A stretch of DNA of 64,000 nt from Polyangiaceae bacterium. Lineage in GTDB: Bacteria; Myxococcota_A; Polyangia; Polyangiales; Houyiibacteriaceae. The notes below the pieces were generated by a model, which did not search any database, had not been told where the DNA came from, and was given only the letters and a program-made list of their open reading frames with translations. The stretch spans positions 3,057-67,056 of the forward strand of contig JALVDI010000486.1 in NCBI GenBank assembly GCA_027009115.1. Direction: 5' to 3'. The first letter of the stretch is position 1. The number at the start of each line of letters is the position of its first letter. Positions 3,192-62,069 of the stretch are shown one piece after another. Both the position numbers and the translations under genes were made by a program.

Positions 3192-3932
3192 TCACGGGGT
3201 GTCGCGTTCGAGCGCGAAAGTGGCGGGAAGCACGCGCAGGCGCTCGATCTCGGCCTTGATGCGCGCGATTTCACGCACCGTCGCCGCCTCCGCCGCTTCG
3301 ACCTTCCCGTCGATCTCGGCCTTCTGCGCGGCGATCTGGGCGGTCTCGAGCTGGAGCGTCTGCTCGAGCTCCAAGATCTTCTGGCGGATGGTCTCCGTCG
3401 CCTGCGCGAGGTAATCGTCGCGGGTCTGCTTCTCTTGTTCGGCCGTCTGGCGAATCTGGCCGAGCTGGTCTTGAATCTGGGCGGCCAGGTTCTCGAGCAC
3501 GGTGATCTTGCGCTGGGCATCGAGCACTGCGTCGGCGATGGTCCACTCGTCGTCGGCCGCGTCCATGGCGAGCACCGCCGCCTTGCGCGTTGCGGGGTCC
3601 ATCGCCCGCAGGCCGTCGAGCACGCGCAGCAGCTTTTCCGCCGAATAAGGCGCCTCGGGAACCTTCGCGGTGGCGTAGATCTCCTCGAACGGTCGGTCCT
3701 CGACGATGCCGGACGCGCTCGTGGAGGGGGCCGCAGGCGGCGCGGTCGGAGCGGTCGGGGGAGGCGAGGGGACCGACGCCGGAGGGCTCTGCTTCGCCTC
3801 CTCGGCGAGGATGCGGTCGATCTCGTCCAGGGACATCTCGTCGGCCGCCTCGCTCGCGACCTTTGCTTCCTCCTCTTCGGTGAGCTCGACGAGCTTCATC
3901 TTGGAGAGGGCCTTGAGAAATTTGTTCGCCAT
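3192..3932 (-). CDS. Hypothetical coiled-coil protein (acidic N-terminus, Pro-rich linker, long heptad-like C-terminal half)
   Basis: 246-aa ORF with high third-position GC, lying first in the ABC operon direction. The C-terminal half (QIQDQLGQIRQTAEQEKQTRDDYLAQATETIRQKILELEQTLQLETAQIAAQKAEIDGKVEAAEAA) looks coiled-coil. I recognise no enzymatic motif. Confidence 0.6.
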   Translation of the reverse strand: MANKFLKALSKMKLVELTEEEEAKVASEAADEMSLDEIDRILAEEAKQSPPASVPSPPPTAPTAPPAAPSTSASGIVEDRPFEEIYATAKVPEAPYSAEKLLRVLDGLRAMDPATRKAAVLAMDAADDEWTIADAVLDAQRKITVLENLAAQIQDQLGQIRQTAEQEKQTRDDYLAQATETIRQKILELEQTLQLETAQIAAQKAEIDGKVEAAEAATVREIARIKAEIERLRVLPATFALERDTP

Positions 3933-4191
3933 CGGCGTCGGCGAGCATCCCCCGCTTGACGCTGTCGATCAAGGCTGTCGGCGGGCTTGGCGGGGCCGGT
4001 GGGGCCTGCCCGGTGGCCGCGCGGTTCGTTCGTTGCTAGAGCGCATCTCAAACACGATCGTCGATCGATCCGTGGACTGGGCGGGACCGGTGGCGCATCC
4101 GAGAGGCGAGGGAATGTCGAGCATTCTTGAGCTGAGAGGATGGCGGCAGAGGGCGTACGCAGGCCGCGGAGCGGCGAGGAGGGGTTTTGAG

Positions 4192-6015: not shown

Positions 6016-9000
6016 TCAGGCCTCCTCGGGCCGGAGACTGAAGCGGAGGCCGTCGCCGGATACTTCGGCTTCGTGGAGCCGGCCCTCGCCGAGGCCGCGC
6101 TCGAAGCGGCTCGCGAGCGTCTCGGCGGCGATGGTTTCGGCGTGCGCAGCGATCGCCTCGGCCAGCTCACCGTCCGCCTCCCAGCCGACGTGCACCCGGG
6201 CGCCGATCGGGAGGTCCATCTCCTTGCGCGCCTTGTTGATGCGGTTGATGACCTCCCGTGCCAGCCCCGCGCGGTGCAGCGCGGGGGTGATCTGGGTATC
6301 GAGCACCACGACGTGGCCCTGCTCCTCGGCCGCGGCGAAGCCTGCCTTGGCGACGAGGCGCACCTGGATGTCGTCGGGGCCAAGCTCGAAGCGTTCGCCG
6401 CCGAGGGCGAGGACGACGCTCCCCTTGGTGCGCAGCTGGGCATAGAGCGCGGCCCCGTCGGCGGCGGCGAGGGCGGCCTTGCAGGCGGGCAGGTGCTTGC
6501 CGAGGCGCGGGCCGAGGGCGCGGAAGTTCGGCAAGAGCTGATAGTCGACGTAGGTCTCCAGCTCGTCGGTGAAGGCGATCTCCTCGACGTTGAGCTCGTC
6601 GCGGATGATCCGCTCGAAGCGCTGAATCGTCACGCGCTCCATCTCGTCGGCGACGGCCACGATAGCCTTGCTCAGGGGCTGGCGGACCTTGAGCTTGGTG
6701 TCTGCGCGCACCCGTAGACCCGCGGCGACGACGGCGCGGGAGAGCTGCACCGCTCGTCGCAGGGATTCGTCGACGCGCTCGACGCTCGGTTCGGCGAAGG
6801 CGGCGAGGTGTACCGAGCGCGGCGCCTTCGGGATGCGCGTGGCGACCAGGTTCTGGAAGATGGCTTCGCTCATGAAGGGGACGAAGGGCGCGATCAGCTT
6901 CGTCGTCTCGACGAGGACCTCGTAGAGCGTCGCGAACGCCGCGGCCTTGTCGGCGCTCTCGCCCTGGGCCCAGAAGCGGGGCTTGCTCCGGCGCACATAC
7001 CAGTTGCTGAGGGCGTCCACGAAGCCCTCGATGTGGCGGACGGCGAGGTGGCTCTTGTAGTCGTCGAGCTCTCGGCGCACGGAGCGGACCGTGTGGTCGA
7101 GCTCGGCCAATACCCAGCGATCCATGGGAGGCCGCCCGCCGACGGCCGGCCGCGGCGCGGTCGGATCCCAGCCGTCGATGTTGGCGAGCTGGACGAAGAA
7201 GGCGTAGCTGTTCCAGATCTTCAGAAGGAACTTGCTGATCGCCTCCTTCGTGGCGCGGTCGAAGAAGCGCGTGTTCTGACCGGGAACCGTCGCCGAATAG
7301 AGGGCCCAGCGCACCGCGTCCGCTCCCGCCGACTCCATGAGCTCGAGGGGGTCGGTGTAGTTCTTGAGCGACTTGCTCATCTTGCGGCCTTGCTCGTCCG
7401 TGAGCAGGCCCAGTACCACGCAGTTCTTGAAGGGGTGAGGATACTTCTCTTCGTCGAAGAGCAGCGTGCTGATCGTCATCAGCGAGTAGAACCAGCCGCG
7501 GGTCTGGTCGACGGCTTCGGTGATGAAATCCGCGGGGAACGCTTTGTGGAACTTCTTGCGCTGCTCCTTGACGTGCGGGTACCCCCACTGCGCGAAGGGC
7601 ATGCACCCGCTGTCGAACCAGCAATCGATCACCTCCGGAACCCGCCGGTAGACGCCCGGCTTGCCGCGCTCGGTCCAGGTGACGTGGTCGATCCATGGCT
7701 TGTGGACCATGAGGTGGTCGGCGAGGGAGCGGTCGCGGCGCTGCGCCTCGTAGAAATGGTCGAAGGCGCGCGGGTTCCTCTCGAGGATCTCCTCGACGGA
7801 TCCGACCGCGACGACGTCCCCGGTCTCGTCGTTGACCCAGATCGGCAACGGCGTGCCCCAGAAACGCTCGCGGCTGAGCGCCCAGTCCACGTTGCCCTCG
7901 AGGAATTGGCCGAAGCGGCCGCGCTTGATGTGCTCGGGCTCCCAGTGAACGTGTTCGTTGTTCTCTTGGACTCGGTGAATCTCCTGGGTCGTGCGGACGA
8001 ACCAACTCTCCCGCGCGTATTGGATGAGAGGGTCTTCCATGCGGCGCCACGAGAACGGGTAGTCGTGGCGGTAGACCTCCTCCTTGAAGAGCAGCCCGCG
8101 CGTCCGGAGGTTCCGGATGATGTCCCGGTCGGCGTCCTTGCAGAAGCGACCGGCGAAGTCCGTCACCTCCGGTGGGAAGGTCCCGTCGGGCCGCAGCAAC
8201 TGGAGCCACCCGAGCCCCTCGCTCTTGCAGGCCGCGAAGTCGTCCTCTCCGAACGCGGGGGCGAGGTGGACGAGCCCCGAGCCCGAGGCGAGCTCCACGA
8301 AGTCGGCCGCGATGACCCGATGCGCCGGGCCGCCCTCGGGCTCCACGTAGCGGAAGGGTGGTTCGTACTCGGTACCGACCCACTGCTGGCCCTTGCGGCG
8401 CTCCAGAATCTCGTGCGGGCGATCGCCCAAGAGGTTGGCGGCGCGCGCTTCGGCGAGAACGAGCTTGCGGCCGTCGTCCAGCCGCACGGTCAGGTAGTCG
8501 GCGTCCGCCTTCACCGCGAGGGCGATGTTGGACGGGAGGGTCCAGGGCGTCGTCGTCCAGGCCAAGAAGCTCGTGTCCGGCATGCCCTTGACGGGGAAAC
8601 GCACGGTGATCGAGGGGTCATCGACCTGCTTGTAGCCTTGGCCCACCTCGCCGGCGGAGAGCGCCGTGCCGCCCTGAGGCCACCACCACACGACCTTGTG
8701 CCCCTTGTAGAGGAGTCCCTTGTCGAAGAGCTTCTTGAGGGCCCACCAGACGCTCTCGACATAGCTCTTGTGGAAGGTGACGTAGGCGTCCTCCAGGTCC
8801 ACCCAGAAGCCGATGCGGCGGGTCATCACCTCCCACTCGTGGGTGTACTTGAAGACGCTTTCGATGCACTTCTTCGTGAACGGCTCGATCCCGAAGTCGG
8901 CGATCGCCTGGCGGCCGCTGATGCCGAGCTCCTTCTCGACCTCCACCTCGACCGGCAGGCCGTGGGTGTCCCAGCCGGCGCGCCGCGGCACGTGGAAGCC

Positions 9001-53101: not shown

Positions 53102-56100
53102 GTGGAACAAGCGCCGGTCGTCTACGGAAAATACCAGCTGCTCGAGCTCCTCGCTCGGGGGGGCATGGCCGAGGTGTTCAAGGCCAAGTCTCACGGCGTC
53201 GAGGGCTTCGAGAAGGTCCTCGTAATCAAGAGGATCCTCGCGGAGTTGGGGGAGAGCCCCGAGTTCGTCGAGATGTTCATCAACGAGGCGAAGATCGCCG
53301 TCACGCTCTCGCACGCGAACATCGTGCAGGTCTTCGATCTCGGCAAGGCCGACGACACTTACTTCATCGCCATGGAGTACGTTGCGGGCGCTGACCTGGC
53401 GACGGTGCTGCGCCGGGCCCGGAGGTACGGCAAGCCTCTTACGCCAGAGCTGGCGGTCTTCGTCGTCAGCGAGGTCGCCAAGGGGCTGGATTACGCGCAC
53501 CGTCGGCGCGACGTCGACATGAGGCCGCTGCACATCGTTCACCGCGACGTCTCGCCGCAGAACATCCTGCTCAGTTACGAGGGGGAGGTGAAGCTCACCG
53601 ACTTTGGCATCGCGAAGGCGCGTACGTCCGTGCCCGATGGGACCGAGCGGGGAGTTCTCAAGGGGAAGTACGCCTACATGGCGCCGGAGCAGGCACGCGG
53701 CGAGGATGTGGACGCCCGCACCGACCTCTTTGCTCTCGGCACGGTGCTCTACGAGGCGCTGGCCGGCCGCAATCCCTTTGCTCAGTCCTCGACCTACGAG
53801 ACCCTGCAGCGGGTCCGCGAGGGGCGCTACGAGCCCCTGAGGAGTGTCGCGCCGGAGGTCTCCGAGGAGCTCGAGGCCATCGTTCACAAGGCGATGAGCC
53901 CCGACGTCGAGGACCGGTACAGGGACGCGGGGAGGTTCTACGAGGACCTCATTCAATACCTTTACGCGAGCGGCGGCCGCGTCGGAGCGCACGATCTCGC
54001 CAGCTACCTGGACGCGCTTCGGAGCGCTTCCGAGGGGCGGCGTAGTCAGGTCGCGACGGACGCCGGACTGCGGGCTGCGTTCGACATGGACACGGCGGTC
54101 GGTCGGCTGGGGACCGGAGACGTGACCCCGGCGGAAGTGCCGTCGGCTCGAAGCGCCTCGGGCAGGCCCACGACCGGCGCGCGGCACCCCGCGCAGACTC
54201 CGGCGGCGCGTCCTCAGGCGGAGCGGCGGGACGTGACGGCCCTCGCGGTCCGGGGAGCGGATGCGAGCGTTTCTATCCGTCGGTTCGGGGGTGAGCTCGT
54301 TGTCGAGGAGGGGGATTCGGCGATCGCCCTCTTTGGGCGGGTGAACCCGGATGGACGAGACAGCGAGCACGCGGCGCGAGCGGGCCTGGCCCTGCTGCGA
54401 GCGACGCCCGCTGCGTCCGTCGCCATCCACGGAGGACGCATCCTCGTCGACGTTCGAGGGGAGCTCCAGCGGGACGCGGCGTACGAGCGGGTCGTGGGCG
54501 AGGTCCGGGCGCTCCTGCAGGGGGCTTCCGGTCGCGTCGTGGCCAGCCGTTCGACCCGCGAGGCGCTCAAGCGCTACTTCGAGTTGCGGCCCTGCGGCGA
54601 CACCTTCGAGGTGGTCGGCGAGCGCAACCTCACCGAGGCGCTTGGCCGTTTCGTCGGTCGCCGCGAGGTCCTCCGCCGCATGGGAGAGATCTTGGCGCTG
54701 GCCAACAAGGGCAAGCAATGCCTGGTGGCGGTGGTGGGCGAGGGGGGCATCGGGAAGAGCCGGCTCATGCTCGAGACGATGCGGCGGCTCCGCACGGGCG
54801 GGCACAGCGTCGGCATGTACGTCTGCAAGGTCCCCAGGCACAGCCGCGACGTCCCGCTCTCGGCGACCCAGGAGATGCTGCGGGTGCTCCTCGGTATCGA
54901 AGACTTCGACGGCGAAGAGGAAGTGCGCGAGAAGGTCCTCCGTTTCCGAGAGCTGGGTTTGCCCAAGGCGGAGCTCGACGCCGTGCGGGCCACCCTGGGC
55001 CTCGGCGCTGGGGAAGGTGCCCCTGCAGGGGGGCGGGGGCTCTTGGTGTCGGCCATCGCGCGCATCGCTCTGAAGCTGGCCGAGGATCGGCTCACCGTCT
55101 TCGCTTTCGACGACTTCGACGGCGTCGACGACGAGAGCCTGGAGATCCTCCAGGGGCTCGTCAAGGCCCCGGGCAACGCTCGCGTCGTGGTCATGGTGGC
55201 GCATCGCCCGGACGAGCGTTTCGCCTGGGACGCTTACCCGGGCTTCTTCGAAGTGGCCCTCGGTCCCCTGGAGGATGACGACATCGCGCGGTTGACGGCC
55301 GCGCGACTCGGTGTCGACGAGGTGCCCATGGAGCTTCTGCGGGAAGTCAGCGTCAAGAGCGCGGGCAACCCGCTCTACGCCGAGGAGTATCTTCAGGCGC
55401 TCCTCGATGCCGGGGCGATCGAGGCATCGGACGGCAAGGTCGAGTATCGAGCGGATGTCGCCGTCGAGGTGCCCAAGACGCTCCGTGGCATCGTGGCGCA
55501 GCGGCTGAGCCGCGTGACTCCGGCGGAGCGCCACCTGCTGCAGATCGCGGCGCTGGTTGGCGGGCGCTTTCACGACGCGCTCTTGACGCGGGTGGTGCAG
55601 GAGACGGAGACGGTCGTGGCGGACGCCGTCGAGGCGCTGGCCAGCCGCGGCATCTTCGTGCGCACGGGGGTTCGCGAGTACGCCTTTGCGCACAGCTTGA
55701 TCCCCGAGGTCGTCAAGGCCGGTCTCCCACTCGACGCCCGCCGCGAGATCCATGCGGCGATCGGGCGAGCGCTCGAGGACCTCTACCCGAATCACGTCGA
55801 CGAGCTCTCCGAGCGCCTCGCGTACCACTACAAAGAGGCTGGCGAGCGGGACCGAGCCCTCGATTTCCTCGTGCGCGCCGCCGACCGCCTCGAGGCGGAG
55901 CACAAGCTCGCGGGTGCGGTCGGGTTCCTCGGGCGCGCCGTGGAGATGCTCGCCAAGGCGCCGAACCCCGACCGCGACCGGATGCTCCAACTCTATCGGC
56001 GCATTGGGGATTCGTGCCTTCGGAGCCGCGAGCTCGAGGCAGGGCTGGAACACATCGACGGGGCCCTGGAGCTCGCCGAGGGCTTGGGTCGTGAGGAACA

Positions 56101-57007
56101 CGTCGCGCGCTTTTCGCTGATGAAGGGGCAGTACCTGGCGCTCTCCATGCGCTTCACCGAGGCCCAGCCCTGGTTTGAGCGGGCGCGTCAGCTCGCCATG
56201 TCGGTCGGGGACCGTGACCTGGTCCGCGACGTGATCACGGCGCTCGCGGACGCCTCCGTGCGCAACGGGGAGTACACGCGCGCGGTCGCCCTGTTCGAGG
56301 AGGCGCTGGCCCTGGCCACGGAGGCCAAGGATCGCCACGCGCAGATTCGGTGCCTCATCCCCTTGGCACACGCCTTCGCCGGGACAATGGACCAGAGTGC
56401 TGCCCTCGAGGCGCTCGCGGAGGCGCGGGGCCGGATGGGGCCGCACTCGGACCGCATCGTCGAGTGCGAGCTCTGGAAGAGCGAGGCACTGGTTCACTAC
56501 TACCTGGGCAACACCGCCCGTGCCTTGGAGGCCGGGTACAAGGGGCTGGAGTTGGCCAAGGAGTACGGGTTCGCTTACGAGGCCGCCGTGAACGCCCACA
56601 ACATCGGCGAGTTGCACTTGCGCGAGGGGGATTTCAAGCGGTCGTTCGCGATGCTCCACTACAGCTACGACGTCGCCAAGGAGCACGGCTTCGTCAAACT
56701 TCAGTACGGCAACCTTCGCGTGCTGGGTTTCATCGACGCGGTCAAGCTCGGCAACCCGGCCGGGCGTGACCGCATCGTCGAGGCGTACACCTACGCCCAG
56801 CGCCACGGCTTCGTGTGGGACGCGGTGCAGGCGCGCTACATGCTGGCCGTCGTCGACGCCACCCTTGGGCGTCTCGAGGATGGGCGGCGAGGTCTGCGTG
56901 AGGTTCGACAGCTCGCCACCCGCTACGGCATGTCGCACTACGAGCGGGCCGCCGAAGAGGCGCTTGAAGCCATCGAGGCGGGGCGCGACGTGCCCATGCC
57001 TCATTGA
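53102..57007 (+). CDS. Multidomain Ser/Thr kinase: Hanks kinase + degenerate cyclase-homology-like domain + P-loop STAND/AAA ATPase + TPR-like helical repeats
   Basis: GTG start at 53102. Kinase motifs are GGMAEVFKA, HRDVSPQNILL, DFGIAK and APEQ. The cyclase-like stretch ERRDVTALAVRGADAS lacks the metal-binding Asp context. The P-loop is VVGEGGIGKSRLMLE and the Walker B-like motif is VFAFDDFD. About 450 aa of helical repeats follow. Confidence 0.85.
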   Translation: MEQAPVVYGKYQLLELLARGGMAEVFKAKSHGVEGFEKVLVIKRILAELGESPEFVEMFINEAKIAVTLSHANIVQVFDLGKADDTYFIAMEYVAGADLATVLRRARRYGKPLTPELAVFVVSEVAKGLDYAHRRRDVDMRPLHIVHRDVSPQNILLSYEGEVKLTDFGIAKARTSVPDGTERGVLKGKYAYMAPEQARGEDVDARTDLFALGTVLYEALAGRNPFAQSSTYETLQRVREGRYEPLRSVAPEVSEELEAIVHKAMSPDVEDRYRDAGRFYEDLIQYLYASGGRVGAHDLASYLDALRSASEGRRSQVATDAGLRAAFDMDTAVGRLGTGDVTPAEVPSARSASGRPTTGARHPAQTPAARPQAERRDVTALAVRGADASVSIRRFGGELVVEEGDSAIALFGRVNPDGRDSEHAARAGLALLRATPAASVAIHGGRILVDVRGELQRDAAYERVVGEVRALLQGASGRVVASRSTREALKRYFELRPCGDTFEVVGERNLTEALGRFVGRREVLRRMGEILALANKGKQCLVAVVGEGGIGKSRLMLETMRRLRTGGHSVGMYVCKVPRHSRDVPLSATQEMLRVLLGIEDFDGEEEVREKVLRFRELGLPKAELDAVRATLGLGAGEGAPAGGRGLLVSAIARIALKLAEDRLTVFAFDDFDGVDDESLEILQGLVKAPGNARVVVMVAHRPDERFAWDAYPGFFEVALGPLEDDDIARLTAARLGVDEVPMELLREVSVKSAGNPLYAEEYLQALLDAGAIEASDGKVEYRADVAVEVPKTLRGIVAQRLSRVTPAERHLLQIAALVGGRFHDALLTRVVQETETVVADAVEALASRGIFVRTGVREYAFAHSLIPEVVKAGLPLDARREIHAAIGRALEDLYPNHVDELSERLAYHYKEAGERDRALDFLVRAADRLEAEHKLAGAVGFLGRAVEMLAKAPNPDRDRMLQLYRRIGDSCLRSRELEAGLEHIDGALELAEGLGREEHVARFSLMKGQYLALSMRFTEAQPWFERARQLAMSVGDRDLVRDVITALADASVRNGEYTRAVALFEEALALATEAKDRHAQIRCLIPLAHAFAGTMDQSAALEALAEARGRMGPHSDRIVECELWKSEALVHYYLGNTARALEAGYKGLELAKEYGFAYEAAVNAHNIGELHLREGDFKRSFAMLHYSYDVAKEHGFVKLQYGNLRVLGFIDAVKLGNPAGRDRIVEAYTYAQRHGFVWDAVQARYMLAVVDATLGRLEDGRRGLREVRQLATRYGMSHYERAAEEALEAIEAGRDVPMPH

Positions 57008-57013
57008 ACGGCG

Positions 57014-58018
57014 ATGACGATGGGACCGGCCTGGCGCATCGGAACGGAGCACCTGGAGCAGGCGCGTGGCGTGGTCCGCCGCTACGCGACGCAGACGCCT
57101 CTCGTTGCAGCGACCGCCATCGACCCGCGGGTGTGGTTGAAGCTCGAGTGCCACCAGCACACGGGGTCCTTCAAGGTCCGCGGAGCGCTCACGCGGCTGT
57201 CGGTGCTCACCGACGAGGAGCGGGGGCAGGGGGTGGTCGCGGCCTCCGCCGGCAACCACGGGCTCGGGGTGGCCTACGCTGCCCGGAAGCTGGGCGTCCG
57301 CGCGAAGGTCTTTGTTCCCCCGGGGACACCGGCGGTCAAAGTCGAGGGGATCGGCGCCCTTGGCGCGGAGGTCGTGGTGGGCGATACTCCCGGCTACGAC
57401 GCCGCCGAGGAGGCCGCGCGCCGGGAGGCGAGGGCCCGCGGTTGCGTCTTTATCTCCCCTTACGACGACCCCTGGGTCGCGGCCGGCAACGGCGGGACGG
57501 TCGGGTTGGAGATCTTCGAGTCCATTGGCTCTCCGGACGCGGTCGTCTGTCCCGTCGGTGGCGGTGGCCTGATCTGCGGGCTGGCCGCGGCCCGCGACGC
57601 AGGGGGGCGCGACGTCGACCTCGTCGGTGTCAACACGGAGGCCTCGCCGGGGATGTTCCGCTCCTTCGAGAAGGGCGAGGCCGTCGAGACCTTGCCGCCG
57701 GCGCCGACCCTCGCCGAGGGCCTCGAGGGCGGCGTCCGGCCCACGACCTTCCTGCTGGCGCGGGAGGCGAGGGTCCGGATGGAGCTCGTGGCCGAGGACG
57801 AGATCGCCGCGGCGATGCGCTGGGCCCGGGACGTGCTCGGCACCCCCGTGGAAGGTAGCGCCGCGGCGGCCATTGCCTGGGTTCGCCGCTGCGTCGCCCG
57901 GCTCCCCGGGGACGCGCCCATTGTGGTCGTGGTCAGTGGCGGCAACGTGGATCCCGCGCGGCTCGGCGGCCTCGGATGCCGCCCTCCACCCTCGGCGCTC
58001 AGGCGGCGCTCGGGGTGA
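57014..58018 (+). CDS. PLP-dependent serine/threonine dehydratase family enzyme
   Basis: The PLP-lysine motif is HTGSFKVRGA, with SAGNHGLGVAYAA and the Gly-rich loop CPVGGGGLICG. It starts 7 nt after the kinase stop. Confidence 0.8.
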   Translation: MTMGPAWRIGTEHLEQARGVVRRYATQTPLVAATAIDPRVWLKLECHQHTGSFKVRGALTRLSVLTDEERGQGVVAASAGNHGLGVAYAARKLGVRAKVFVPPGTPAVKVEGIGALGAEVVVGDTPGYDAAEEAARREARARGCVFISPYDDPWVAAGNGGTVGLEIFESIGSPDAVVCPVGGGGLICGLAAARDAGGRDVDLVGVNTEASPGMFRSFEKGEAVETLPPAPTLAEGLEGGVRPTTFLLAREARVRMELVAEDEIAAAMRWARDVLGTPVEGSAAAAIAWVRRCVARLPGDAPIVVVVSGGNVDPARLGGLGCRPPPSALRRRSG

Positions 58019-58562
58019 GATAACCCTCGGCCAGCGCGTAGCCCCGGAGCGCGCTGCGGAGCAGTCGGCGGCCCCGGTGGAGCCGCGACATCACCGTGCC
58101 GACAGGGCAGCCGATGCGGGCGGCGGCTTCTTTGTACGATTCGCCGCGGATGTCGACGAGCTCGACCACCTCGCGAAAGGGCTGCGGCAGGGCGGCCAGG
58201 GCCTCCACCACTTCGTCGCTGAGCTCCTCGGTCAGTGGACTCTGGGCGTTGGGCGGCCGCGTGCCCGCGCACCAGTGGGGGCCAGCGATCGCCGACTGCG
58301 CCACTTCGCCGAGGACTTCGCGCTCGCGCTTGCGGCGGCGGTAGGTGCTCGCGAAGGTGTTGAAGAGAATACGGTGCATCCACGCCCGCGGGTTGGTCCC
58401 TGCCTCGAAGCGATCCCAGAAGGCCCACGCACGGCTCATGGCCTCTTGCAGCACGTCGTCGGCTTCCGCGCGCGAGCGGGTGAGGCGCACGGCGGCGCCG
58501 TAGAGCTCGCGGACGTGTGGAGCGACGCTGGCTTCGAAGGATGCTCTCTTGCCCTGGTTCAT
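57999..58562 (-). CDS. ECF-type RNA polymerase sigma-70 factor
   Basis: The start is ATG 58562-58560 (MNQGKRASFE); the ORF-track start at 59534 is a spurious extension. Region 2 is DDVLQEAMSRAWAFWDRFEAGTNPRAWMHRILFNTF. Region 4 is SYKEAAARIGCPVGTVMSRLHRGRRLL. Confidence 0.85.
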   Translation of the reverse strand: MNQGKRASFEASVAPHVRELYGAAVRLTRSRAEADDVLQEAMSRAWAFWDRFEAGTNPRAWMHRILFNTFASTYRRRKREREVLGEVAQSAIAGPHWCAGTRPPNAQSPLTEELSDEVVEALAALPQPFREVVELVDIRGESYKEAAARIGCPVGTVMSRLHRGRRLLRSALRGYALAEGYLTPSAA

Positions 58563-58585
58563 CGAAAACCTCCGGCGTCCGATGC

Positions 58586-58602
58586 AGCAAGGGGGGTGCC
58601 AC
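58586..58602 (-). promoter_or_regulatory. Sigma54 (-24/-12) promoter candidate for the ECF sigma gene
   Basis: The minus strand reads GTGGCAC-CCCCC-TTGCTG, matching the consensus TGGCAC-N5-TTGC exactly in both blocks and in spacing. The predicted start site is about 13 nt before the ATG, leaving the leader CCGGAGGTTTTCG with an SD. Confidence 0.55.
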
Positions 58603-58623
58603 GTCGGTTTCGATGCGTCCTGC

Positions 58624-58656
58624 CGCGGTGGATGCGCGGTGGATGCGCGGTGGACG
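58624..58656. repeat. Three tandem 11-bp repeats (CGCGGTGGATG x2 plus CGCGGTGGACG) upstream of the sigma54 promoter candidate
   Basis: Read directly from the sequence: 58624-58634, 58635-58645 and 58646-58656. The period is one helical turn. They lie 23-55 bp upstream of the -24 element. Confidence 0.8.
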
Positions 58657-58729
58657 GGCGCTCGCCGATCGCGGTCCTGCCACGTTGTCTCCAGGCAGCC
58701 ACGCCGGCGTGTCAGCCTGTCAGCGAGCC

Positions 58730-59610
58730 TCAGTGGCCCGTGCGGATCCCTTCGCCGGCGCGGGCGATGGCGTGGCTCATGGTCGGCGTGTTCTTGGCGA
58801 CGCCCACTTCGCCGCGCGCGCTGACCAGGATGAGCCCTCCGCGCCCGCGCCCGCGGCTCGCGAGCTCGACGAGGGCTCGCTCCGCGGCCTGTTGGGCGTT
58901 CGCTTCGTCGAGCAGCTCGCAGGCGCAGCGAGCCAGGCAGACCCGAAGGATGGCTTCGCCGATGCCGGTGGCTGAGCAAGCTCCGGCGCGGTCGTCGGCC
59001 CAGGTGCCGGCCCCGGGAACCGGCGTGTCGCCGACGCGCCCGGGGGCTTTGCCCACGGTCCCACCGGTGCTCGTCGCCGCCGCGACCGCGCCGGCCCCGT
59101 CGAAGGCGACCGCGCCGACGGTGCCCCCCGCCCAGCCCTCGCCGACCTGTCCGGCACGCCACCTTTCGAGGCGCCGGCGCGCTTCGTCGGTGACCATCGT
59201 CCCAGGTGCGGCGGGTTGGAAACCGCGGGCGCGGGCGAAAGCGTCGGCGCCGGCAGCACAGAGCAGGACGTGGCGGTCTTCCTCGAGGAGGGCCCGGGCG
59301 ACGCGGATGGGGTGAGGGTAGGGCGGCAGCGCGGCGACGCCCGCGACCCGCAGGTCGGCGCCGTTCATCAAGGCGGCGTCCAGCTCGAGATCCCCGGCGC
59401 TGTTGAGCGAGCCGCCGGTGCCTGCGTTGTAGCGTGGGTCGGCTTCGAGGACCTCGACGGCGCGCTGGGCCGCGTCCAAGGCGGAGCCCCCTTCCAGCAG
59501 GACGCGCAGCCCCTCGGCGGCAGCCCGGTCGCATCCCGCGACGTGAGCCTCGATGCGTTCGGGCGCCACGCGGCCCGCCCCGCCGTGGACGACGACCACC
59601 GGGGCCGTCA

Positions 59611-59611
<1 letters not shown>
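58730..59611 (-). CDS. Isoaspartyl peptidase / L-asparaginase (Ntn-hydrolase, Asparaginase_2 family)
   Basis: Motifs VVVHGGAG, NAGTGGSLN and the autoprocessing nucleophile context GGTVGAVAFD, plus ATSTGG. Confidence 0.85.
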
Positions 59612-60591
<980 letters not shown>

Positions 60592-60597
60592 GATGTT

Positions 60598-60620
60598 GCC
60601 TCCCGACGGGAGGCTTTCTT
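60598..60620 (+). terminator. Hairpin plus T-rich tract between glnB and glnA (terminator/attenuator candidate)
   Basis: GCCTCCC gac GGGAGGC (7-bp stem) is followed by TTTCTT. It lies 7 nt after the glnB stop. Confidence 0.45.
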
Positions 60621-60644
60621 CCTGACTGGGGAAAGCGAGGAACG

Positions 60645-62069
60645 ATGAGCGAGATCAAGACGCCGCGAGAGGTCATCGAGCTGGCTCGGGCGAAGGGCGC
60701 GGTCATGGTGGACCTGCGCTTTATCGACATGCCCGGCGTTTGGCAGCACACGACCGTCCCCATCCACCGTCTCGACGAAGCTGCGTTCGAGGACGGGTTC
60801 GGATTCGATGGGTCGTCGATTCGCGGCTACCAGCCGATCAACGCCTCGGACATGCTGATTCTCCCGGATCCCACGTCGGCGAAGATGGATCCCTTTACTC
60901 AGCACCCGACGTTGGTGCTGATCTGCGACATCGTCGACCCCATCACGCGCGAGAGCTACGCCCGCGATCCGCGGTACATCGCCAAGAAGGCGGCGGCCTA
61001 CCTCAAGCAGACCGGGATCGCCGACACCGCCTACATCGGGCCGGAGGCCGAGTTCTTCGTCTTCGACGACGTGCGCTACGCGTCGACCCCGAACGCCGCC
61101 TTCTACGAGGTCGACTCGGTGGAGGGGGCCTGGAACAGCGGGAGGGGCGATCGGCCCAACCTCGGCTACAAGATCCCGCACAAGGGCGGCTACTTCCCGG
61201 TGATGCCAAGCGACACGCTCATGGATCTGCGCACGGACATCTGCCAGATCCTGATGGAGCTGGGCTACGAGGTGGAGGTGAGCCACCACGAGGTCGCGAC
61301 CGGCGGCCAGTGCGAGATCGATACGAAGTTCCTCGATCTGTTGTCGATGGGCGATCAGCTCATGTGGTTCAAGTACGTGGTCAAGAACGCGGCCCGCAGG
61401 GCCGGCAAGGTTGCCACGTTCATGCCCAAGCCGATGTACGACGACAACGGCAGCGGGATGCACGTCCATCAGTCGCTCTGGAAGGACGGCAAGCCCTTGT
61501 TCGCGGGCGACGGGTACGGGGGCCTGAGCCAGACGGCGCTCCACTACATCGGCGGGCTGCTCAAGCACGCGCCGGCGATTTGCGCGCTCACGAACCCCAC
61601 GATCAACAGCTACCGTCGCCTCGTGCCGGGCTTCGAGGCTCCCGTCAACCTCGCCTACAGCTCGCGCAACCGCAGCGCGTCGATCCGCATCCCGACTTAC
61701 TCGCAGTCGCCCAAGGCCAAGAGGCTCGAGGCGCGCTTCCCCGACAGCTCGGGCAACCCCTACCTCGCGTTCAGCGCCTTGCTCATGGCAGGGCTGGATG
61801 GAATCCAGAACCAGATCGACCCCGGCGATCCCTTTGACAAGGACCTCTACGCGCTGTCGCCGGAGGAGCTCGAGGGCGTCCCCACGGTGCCTGGGACGCT
61901 GGCCGAGGCTCTCGATTGCCTCGAACGGGACCACGAATTCCTCTTGCAGGGGGACGTCTTCACCAAGGACGTCATCGAGGAGTGGATCGCCTACAAGCGC
62001 GAGAACGAGGTCGCGGTCTTCGCGCAGCGGCCGACGCCCCTCGAGTACGAGCTCTACTTCGCCACCTGA
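60645..62069 (+). CDS. glnA: Glutamine synthetase, type I
   Basis: 474 aa. Motifs [42 protein letters not shown] and SIRIP. A Tyr sits in [10 protein letters not shown], the position of the adenylylation site. Confidence 0.97.

Follow-up and report, generated by a model that had tools for sequence, protein, structure and literature searches.

A predicted sigma-54 promoter and a conserved 47-bp upstream element precede an ECF sigma factor gene with no anti-sigma neighbour in Myxococcota

The contig JALVDI010000486.1 of a Polyangiaceae bacterium (assembly GCA_027009115.1) carries a gene for a sigma factor of the extracytoplasmic function (ECF) type. We analysed a stretch of 64,000 nucleotides of this contig, which we call the window and to which all unmarked coordinates refer. 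In the window the sigma gene is preceded by an exact match to the promoter motif recognised by sigma-54. Further upstream there is a 47-bp element, which is conserved in front of the orthologous genes of other Myxococcota. Between them lies a spacer containing three tandem 11-bp units. The features are collected in Table 1. Together they suggest that the gene is controlled by a sigma-54 promoter and a candidate enhancer, held apart by a spacer whose length changes in whole helical turns.

Table 1. Features of the sigma factor locus (window coordinates)
Feature	Coordinates	Strand	Remarks
ECF (group 4) sigma factor gene (predicted)	57999..58562	-	187 aa; protein ends in ...LTPSAA; Pfam Sigma70_r2 + Sigma70_r4_2
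Shine-Dalgarno sequence GGAGG	58569..58573	-	6 nt before ATG; 2 nt after predicted transcription start (~58575)
Sigma-54 -24/-12 element (predicted), TGGCAC-ccccc-TTGCT (TGGCACCCCCCTTGCT)	58586..58601	-	GG 58600-58599; GC 58588-58587
Three tandem 11-bp units CGTCCACCGCG, CATCCACCGCG, CATCCACCGCG	58624..58656	-	spacer between upstream element and promoter
47-bp upstream element GCTGACAggCTGACACGccggCGTGGctgcctggaGACAACGTGGCA (minus-strand reading GCTGACAGGCTGACACGCCGGCGTGGCTGCCTGGAGACAACGTGGCA)	58678..58724	-	candidate enhancer (upstream activating sequence)
Asparaginase_2 / beta-aspartyl-peptidase-like gene	58730..59611	-	Pfam + NCBIfam; stop TGA 58732-58730
PLP-dependent PALP gene, serine/threonine-dehydratase-like	57014..58018	+	Pfam PALP; convergent, 20-bp overlap with 3' end of sigma gene

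The sigma protein contains a Sigma70_r2 domain (residues 15-79), a Sigma70_r4_2 domain (residues 116-168) and no other Pfam domain. It scores 75.6 bits against the sigma70-ECF model (TIGR02937), for which the cut-off is 42.9 bits. Its sequence thus has what defines an ECF (group 4) factor, namely sigma-2 and sigma-4 regions only and a length of about 170-220 aa, and we classify the predicted product as such. The best match among the more specific NCBIfam models is SigH_actino (TIGR02947), at 137.8 bits, which is below its cut-off of 251.55. The start codon (ATG, 58562-58560, minus strand) is backed by alignment with the homologues P0002 and P0003. The family is large and well kept in Myxococcota, and its named homologues come from Sandaracinus, from Polyangiaceae and from metagenome-assembled genomes labelled 'Myxococcota bacterium'.

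An earlier note, made from the letters of this DNA, had reported an exact TGGCAC-N5-TTGC upstream of the sigma ATG. The motif is present on the minus strand where that note placed it (58587-58601), and it is the only exact match in the window on either strand. Dinucleotide shuffles of the window give a chance expectation of 0.08, close to the 0.1 that had been estimated, and 8 of 100 shuffles contain at least one match. With one mismatch allowed, the window has 2 matches where chance predicts 2.5; only the exact match therefore stands out. A scan of the window anchored on GG and GC finds no second site at 10/10 and one site only at 9/10. The count in a single window is therefore modest evidence for a sigma-54 site.

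The motif lies about 40 nt upstream of the sigma ATG, and its GG and GC are exactly 10 bp apart. The predicted transcription start, taken 12 nt beyond the C of the -12 GC (58587), is near 58575 and leaves a 13-nt leader, which includes the ribosome-binding GGAGG; the earlier note had arrived at the same start and leader. The same layout, a -24 box some 40 nt away from the ATG and GGAGG after the box, is found at the loci L001, L081, L091, L121 and L122. The region has about 70% G+C. A consensus scan of 57900-60700 finds no sigma-70-type promoter. The only terminator in that interval comes after glnB, and there is none between the asparaginase stop and the sigma ATG. A search of 58400-58900 against Rfam (E <= 1) gives no match, which makes a known RNA element unlikely.

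Orthologous loci (L numbers) were gathered by look-ups of exact proteins, by one genome scan and by one scan of metagenomes with a DNA pattern. The matches listed by the genome scan, which used protein alignment, were mostly actinobacterial SigH-like loci, which served as negative controls, and included few orthologues. A GG-N10-GC motif stands at the same place before every orthologous sigma gene examined, in about 20 lineages of Myxococcota with 47-78% protein identity. The form TGGCAY-N5-TTGCW is found in 11 lineages (the window, L001, L081, L083, L084, L089, L091, L103, L107, L121 and L122). Variants with one to three mismatches, all of which retain GG-N10-GC, are found in L087, L096, L092, L126, L102, L104, L105, L106 and L124; examples are TGGCAT-N5-GTGCT, TGGCCC-N5-TTGCA and CGGTAT-N5-TTGCA. 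The -24/-12 motif is present in all orthologues of 51-78% identity, and also in L002 and L003, where the identity falls to 47-50%.

When the loci are aligned on the motif, information is confined to TGG....TTGCW, and the N5 spacer and both flanks are close to zero. Conservation limited in this way is what one expects of a sigma-54 site, and it does not point to general conservation of the sequence. The strict sigma-54 pattern is absent from 79 other loci, which are actinobacterial SigH-like or belong to more distant homologues; in 1.3 Mb of control loci, a loose form of it has a frequency of 0.058 per kb. What lies upstream of the module varies: it is yjeF in most lineages, a divergent PALP gene in L083, small open reading frames in others and the asparaginase gene in the window. 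Since the upstream gene differs between lineages, the promoter module belongs to the sigma gene. The prediction of a sigma-54 promoter, first made from the window, is strongly supported by this comparison, with the -24/-12 element kept before every orthologue examined and its flanks not.

Two further loci, with more distant orthologues, have a promoter motif of a related form. L038 (~3800-4000, a metagenome-assembled genome of Myxococcales) and L039 (~3900-4000, Nannocystaceae ST9) carry TGGCGN-N5-TTGCT 16 nt before the ATG. In L038 the upstream repeats are TTGCCCAA/TTGGGCAA dyads instead of the GACACG block described below. Judging from these repeats, the activator may have changed there while the sigma-54 promoter was kept.

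The 47-bp element lies inside the interval covered by the earlier note (58563-58729) but is not described there. Across 18 lineages it has a fixed length, no insertions or deletions, sharp 5' and 3' edges and an information content of about 51 bits. The sequence common to all orthologues is GcTGACAnnCTGACACGnnnnCGTGGn(9)GACAAcgTGgCA. Its core is a dyad, TGACACG-N4-CGTGGC, of which the inner part, CACG-N4-CGTG, is at 58700-58711. In L002 and L003 the core is a perfect 7-4-7 palindrome, TGACACG-N4-CGTGTCA. The CGTGGCA at the 3' side repeats the half-site once more in inverted orientation, about two helical turns downstream from the centre of the dyad. The block also contains three TGACA units, and a TGACA unit flanks the dyad.

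The block reaches 62 bits in the window, where the runner-up site has a score of -11. Scanning metagenomes with a pattern of the 18-base core returned 27 loci. The full block is present in 12 of them, each followed downstream by the sigma-54 motif, the sigma gene or both. The remaining 15 have neither the 5' TGACA unit nor the promoter and lie in unrelated, mostly coding DNA. On this evidence the 47-bp block appears to be specific to this sigma gene family. Its centre is about 100-135 bp upstream of the predicted start, which is the usual range for the sites of sigma-54 activators. A literature search with strings of the dyad motif found no published binding site with the sequence of this element.

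The block lies 78-114 bp upstream of the -24 box and is helically phased with it. In 18 lineages, taken as independent, we measured the spacing as the distance between the first base of GACACG and the first base of the -24 box. The values are 78, 79, 80, 89 (three lineages), 90 (two), 99, 100 (three), 101, 102, 103, 111, 112 and 114 bp; none of the 18 lineages has a spacing of 81-88, 91-98 or 104-110 bp. In a Rayleigh scan the best-fitting period is 11.2 bp (R = 0.83), and none of 100,000 uniform simulations, scanned over the same periods, reached this R. By a neighbour-joining tree built from the sigma proteins, the length class has changed independently at least six times, each time by about 11 or 22 bp. 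DNA loops in vivo have been fitted with an apparent helical repeat of about 11 bp per turn (PMC3001091), and the 11.2-bp period agrees with it.

The 11-bp units of the window lie in the length-variable part between the block and the promoter. Tandem Repeats Finder reports an 11-bp unit in 2.8 copies with 100% matches at 58624-58654, and a third unit, CGTCCACCGCG, stretches the array to 58656. With up to one mismatch the unit occurs 8 times in the window against 3.8 expected; the excess comes only from the three tandem copies, and the unit is not a dispersed motif. Units of the form CATCCACCGCG are found in no orthologous spacer, including those of L121 (78% identity, as far as the contig reaches) and L081 (73%). 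The spacing is 112 bp in the window and 89 bp in the sister locus L081. The difference of 23 bp together with two extra copies of an 11-bp unit points to an expansion of the spacer that preserves its phase. The repeats are thus most likely, on sequence grounds, a lineage-specific duplication that added about two helical turns. L089, a second lineage with a long spacer (111 bp), resembles the window in having an imperfect, decayed 11-bp tandem, GGCCTGCCTTG followed by GGCCTGCCGGT, at about 3899-3920.

Part of what had been said of these repeats therefore holds. The earlier note described three 11-bp units with a period of one turn, and such units are present; their absence from all orthologues speaks against the binding array that it suggested. 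That 11 bp is about one helical turn is relevant to the phasing of the spacer and not to binding.

With the -24 box as anchor, A/T content rises modestly in a patch 10-32 bp upstream, where most lineages have GAAA/TTTC tracts. The patch hints at a possible bend or IHF-type site. Another tandem, CCGCGC in 2.8 copies, lies within the asparaginase coding sequence of the window (58839-58855) and is probably GC-rich low complexity.

The sigma gene is followed by a convergent gene for an enzyme dependent on pyridoxal 5'-phosphate (PLP) and not by an anti-sigma gene, as had been noted from the window. The orthologous loci examined agree: none has an anti-sigma gene conserved beside the sigma gene, and the downstream neighbours are unrelated lipoproteins or metabolic genes. 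Co-directional downstream genes of distant orthologues were considered as anti-sigma candidates and rejected, being signal-peptide or lipoprotein genes that are not family-wide and are absent from the window. The suggestion of an orphan sigma factor under transcriptional control is supported by these loci.

The C-terminus of the sigma protein is also conserved. The window protein ends in ...PSAA, with the C-terminal codons at 57999-58004. Among the 120 best homologues (P0001-P0120), 105 end in Ala-Ala (88%), compared with 10 of 70 actinobacterial SigH-like relatives (14%). We also examined nine distant myxobacterial loci. In six of these the protein ends in AA and the same six show a sigma-54-like motif, of which two were matched by the search pattern and four were judged by eye from the upstream sequence; none of the three loci that lack the motif ends in AA. 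By analogy with sigma-AntA, described below, the Ala-Ala tail is a candidate degron for ClpXP.

The genes around the module are less constant. The asparaginase stop codon is 5 bp from the 47-bp element, and the gene is outside the conserved module. In L081 (3608-3793) it is cut to a 61-aa N-terminal remnant with 59% identity, and the promoter module is intact. Upstream of the asparaginase gene is an open reading frame of 148 aa (59611-60057) with no Pfam match and 79% identity to its counterpart in L081. Divergent to the string formed by this reading frame, the asparaginase gene and the sigma gene are glnB (P-II) and glnA (glutamine synthetase) at 60253-62069 on the plus strand. No sigma-54 candidate of at least 8/10 was found upstream of glnB-glnA. 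Such a site would have supported a link to nitrogen; the earlier note had suggested an NtrC-type activator.

On the other side of the sigma gene, a PALP gene is found nearby in many orthologous loci, in varying orientation. In the window, the NCBIfam dehydratase models match the PALP protein, all below their cut-offs. We considered whether it might be CysM, which would recall the cysteine link of SigH-like factors, and dropped the idea; the best models are serine/threonine dehydratases, also below cut-off. The PALP gene starts 6 bp after a gene for a 1301-aa Ser/Thr kinase with AAA_16 (STAND-type) and TPR domains (the pair spans 53102-58018, plus strand), and from this arrangement the two are predicted to be co-transcribed. 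The kinase-PALP pair is kept in L081 and L121, convergent with the sigma gene, and is a lineage-specific linkage. Regulation of ECF sigma factors by Ser/Thr kinases is known.

A common order of genes in the orthologous loci is prkA ... pdxJ - yjeF - sigma (L084, L085, L089-L092, L122, L124 and L126), and after the sigma gene there are often a PALP gene and a ThiF/rhodanese (MoeZ-like) gene. In the lineage of the window the sigma module has moved next to glnB-glnA and the asparaginase gene. The ThiF/rhodanese genes share an upstream TTGACn-N17-CATAnT (L089 4600-4737, L084 5534-5621, L122 1377-1505 and L091 ~8400-8541). This housekeeping-type motif provides a local reference for sigma-A promoters in these high-GC organisms. 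No ECF-type motif is shared upstream of the ThiF/rhodanese and PALP neighbours, only the sigma-A-type motif.

We therefore propose that this ECF gene, which has no anti-sigma partner, is controlled by a sigma-54 promoter, the 47-bp candidate enhancer and a spacer of whole helical turns, and we give this proposal a probability of about 0.72. We infer the following mechanism. RNA polymerase with sigma-54 would form a closed complex at the promoter of the sigma gene. An ATP-dependent enhancer-binding protein encoded elsewhere would open this complex. It would be bound to the 47-bp element with its dyad, second CGTGGCA half-site and flanking TGACA unit. The intervening DNA would loop and so join element and promoter. 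Looping needs compatible helix faces, so the length of the spacer would change only in steps of about 11 bp. In the window the repeats would have arisen by a recent tandem duplication, which lengthened the spacing from about 89-90 bp to 112 bp; they would not be a binding array. The level of the sigma factor would be set by regulated synthesis, with no partner anti-sigma, and probably also by rapid turnover through the Ala-Ala tail.

Several points weigh against this proposal. Searched in all six frames, the window yields no GAFTGA, ESELFG, Walker A or RpoN-box signature; genes for rpoN and the activator are absent from the 64 kb, and the presence of sigma-54 is inferred from the phylum. The start near 58575 is a prediction from the motif. 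Transcription may in part be read-through from the asparaginase gene, since no terminator follows that gene. The simulation of the spacings treats related lineages as independent and so overstates their significance, and the approximately six events on the tree give only roughly p = 0.01, itself a rough estimate. The contig of L121 ends before the upstream element, which leaves the ancestral copy number of the 11-bp unit open to doubt. The 47-bp element matches no published site and could therefore bind another kind of regulator. The targeting of the Ala-Ala tail to ClpXP is taken from the sigma-AntA analogy only.

The first alternative is that the 47-bp block is the operator of a repressor or of some other regulator, or a second promoter, for example an autoregulatory one of ECF type, and not a sigma-54 enhancer. 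The three TGACA units do resemble a -35 hexamer. ECF sigma genes are commonly autoregulated. There is also a precedent in hrpL, which is under autogenous control at its own sigma-54 promoter (PMC5263251, PMC8999054). However, no conserved -10-like element lies at a workable distance from any TGACA unit. The block contains nothing like the TTGACn-N17-CATAnT of the neighbouring ThiF genes, and the consensus scan gave no sigma-70-type promoter. The helical-phase ladder speaks for joint action of the block and the -24 box through a loop, and the position of the block centre is that of an activator site. We consider this alternative unlikely.

The second alternative is the one put forward in the earlier note, in which the three 11-bp units are an array for an enhancer-binding protein or accessory factor, one turn apart on one face of the helix. 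The array is a perfect tandem with an 11-bp period and lies 22-54 bp upstream of the -24 box. Its units are found in no orthologous spacer, however, even in the closest relatives L121 and L081. They are direct repeats without dyad symmetry and occupy roughly -48 to -81 relative to the predicted start, in DNA that has to bend, and a different, highly conserved block stands further upstream. An array of this kind seems improbable. Least credible of all is a non-functional sigma-54-like motif, with the sigma factor expressed by read-through of the asparaginase operon or from an unrecognised promoter: there is indeed no terminator from the asparaginase stop to the sigma ATG and a single 10/10 match arises in about 8% of shuffled windows, but about 20 lineages with differing upstream genes have the motif in the same position, and in L081 the asparaginase gene has decayed and the module is intact.

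The proposed control of the sigma gene by sigma-54 has its closest functional precedent in hrpL, and the closest named family in sequence is SigH/SigR. The hrpL gene of Pseudomonas syringae and Erwinia (ECF32) has a sigma-54 promoter that is activated by HrpR/HrpS (PMC8999054, PMC5263251). It too is an ECF gene without an anti-sigma, transcribed with sigma-54 in a cascade from sigma-54 to ECF. The resemblance is functional only. HrpL belongs to Gammaproteobacteria and the family described here to Myxococcota, with actinobacterial SigH as its best named relative, and the upstream elements are different. Genes for type III secretion or an activator are found in none of the loci examined, and an Ala-Ala C-terminus is not reported for HrpL in the literature found.

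Sigma-AntA of Streptomyces albus (ECF282) has no anti-sigma, is regulated transcriptionally and ends in Ala-Ala, which is a proposed ClpXP degron (PMC8999054, PMC7826278). It resembles the present family as an orphan ECF sigma with an Ala-Ala end, in which control of synthesis is combined with proposed proteolysis. Unlike this family it is actinobacterial and depends on a LuxR-type regulator and not on sigma-54. ECF282 is 100% actinobacterial and its AA dipeptide is restricted to one subgroup (PMC7826278), whereas 88% of the 120 best homologues carry it here.

Members of the SigH/SigR family (ECF12, TIGR02947) have about 45% identity to the window protein in their actinobacterial homologues, and the motifs GTVMSRLHR and RAWMHRIL are common to both. 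The score of the window protein is below the family cut-off, there is no gene for a zinc-binding anti-sigma of the RsrA/RshA type downstream, and the actinobacterial loci are without the sigma-54 motif.

Looped sigma-54 enhancers, such as those of NtrC at glnAp2 and NorR at norV, likewise consist of a compact block of dyads or half-sites about 100 bp upstream of GG-N10-GC. We know of no report of strict quantisation of the spacer across species for the NtrC or NorR systems. The NtrC consensus, TGCACC-N5-GGTGCA, is unlike the TGACACG-N4-CGTGKCA found here. NorR uses three GT-N7-AC sites at norV, where oligomerisation of the activator followed by looping is expected, as it would be here, and these sites also differ from TGACACG-N4-CGTGKCA (PMC2831303). 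Myxococcota are rich in sigma-54 activators (PMC12316311). The survey of sigma-54 regulons published in 2025 covers Polyangia, and its main text contains neither 'ECF' nor 'RpoE' (PMC12316311).

A wider view, which we offer tentatively and would rate at somewhat under an even chance, is that of a 'pulse' module found in much of Myxococcota. Here a SigH/SigR-like ECF sigma would have been freed from its anti-sigma and placed under a dedicated activator and a sigma-54 promoter by way of a gene-specific 47-bp element. It would be removed through its Ala-Ala degron, and its spacer would grow in quanta of about 11.2 bp by tandem duplication of 11-bp units. If this is true, the family offers a natural measurement, over many lineages, of the helical repeat that constrains enhancer looping in vivo.

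The ladder of spacings (~79, 89.5, 100.5 and 112 bp) is comparative evidence that the helix face constrains looping between activator and promoter in vivo, the repeat being near 11 bp, and tandem duplication of one-turn units is one way in which such spacers may grow. ECF sigmas without an anti-sigma may follow a general design, suggested by the conserved Ala-Ala tail, in which regulated synthesis is combined with constitutive turnover. The -24/-12 box, the 47-bp candidate enhancer and the rule of allowed spacings define a cis-module that is testable and could be used to fish out the cognate activator. The system would be a second cascade from sigma-54 to an ECF factor, phylogenetically remote from hrpL, in a phylum with an unusual abundance of sigma-54 and its activators, whose targets are mostly uncharted.

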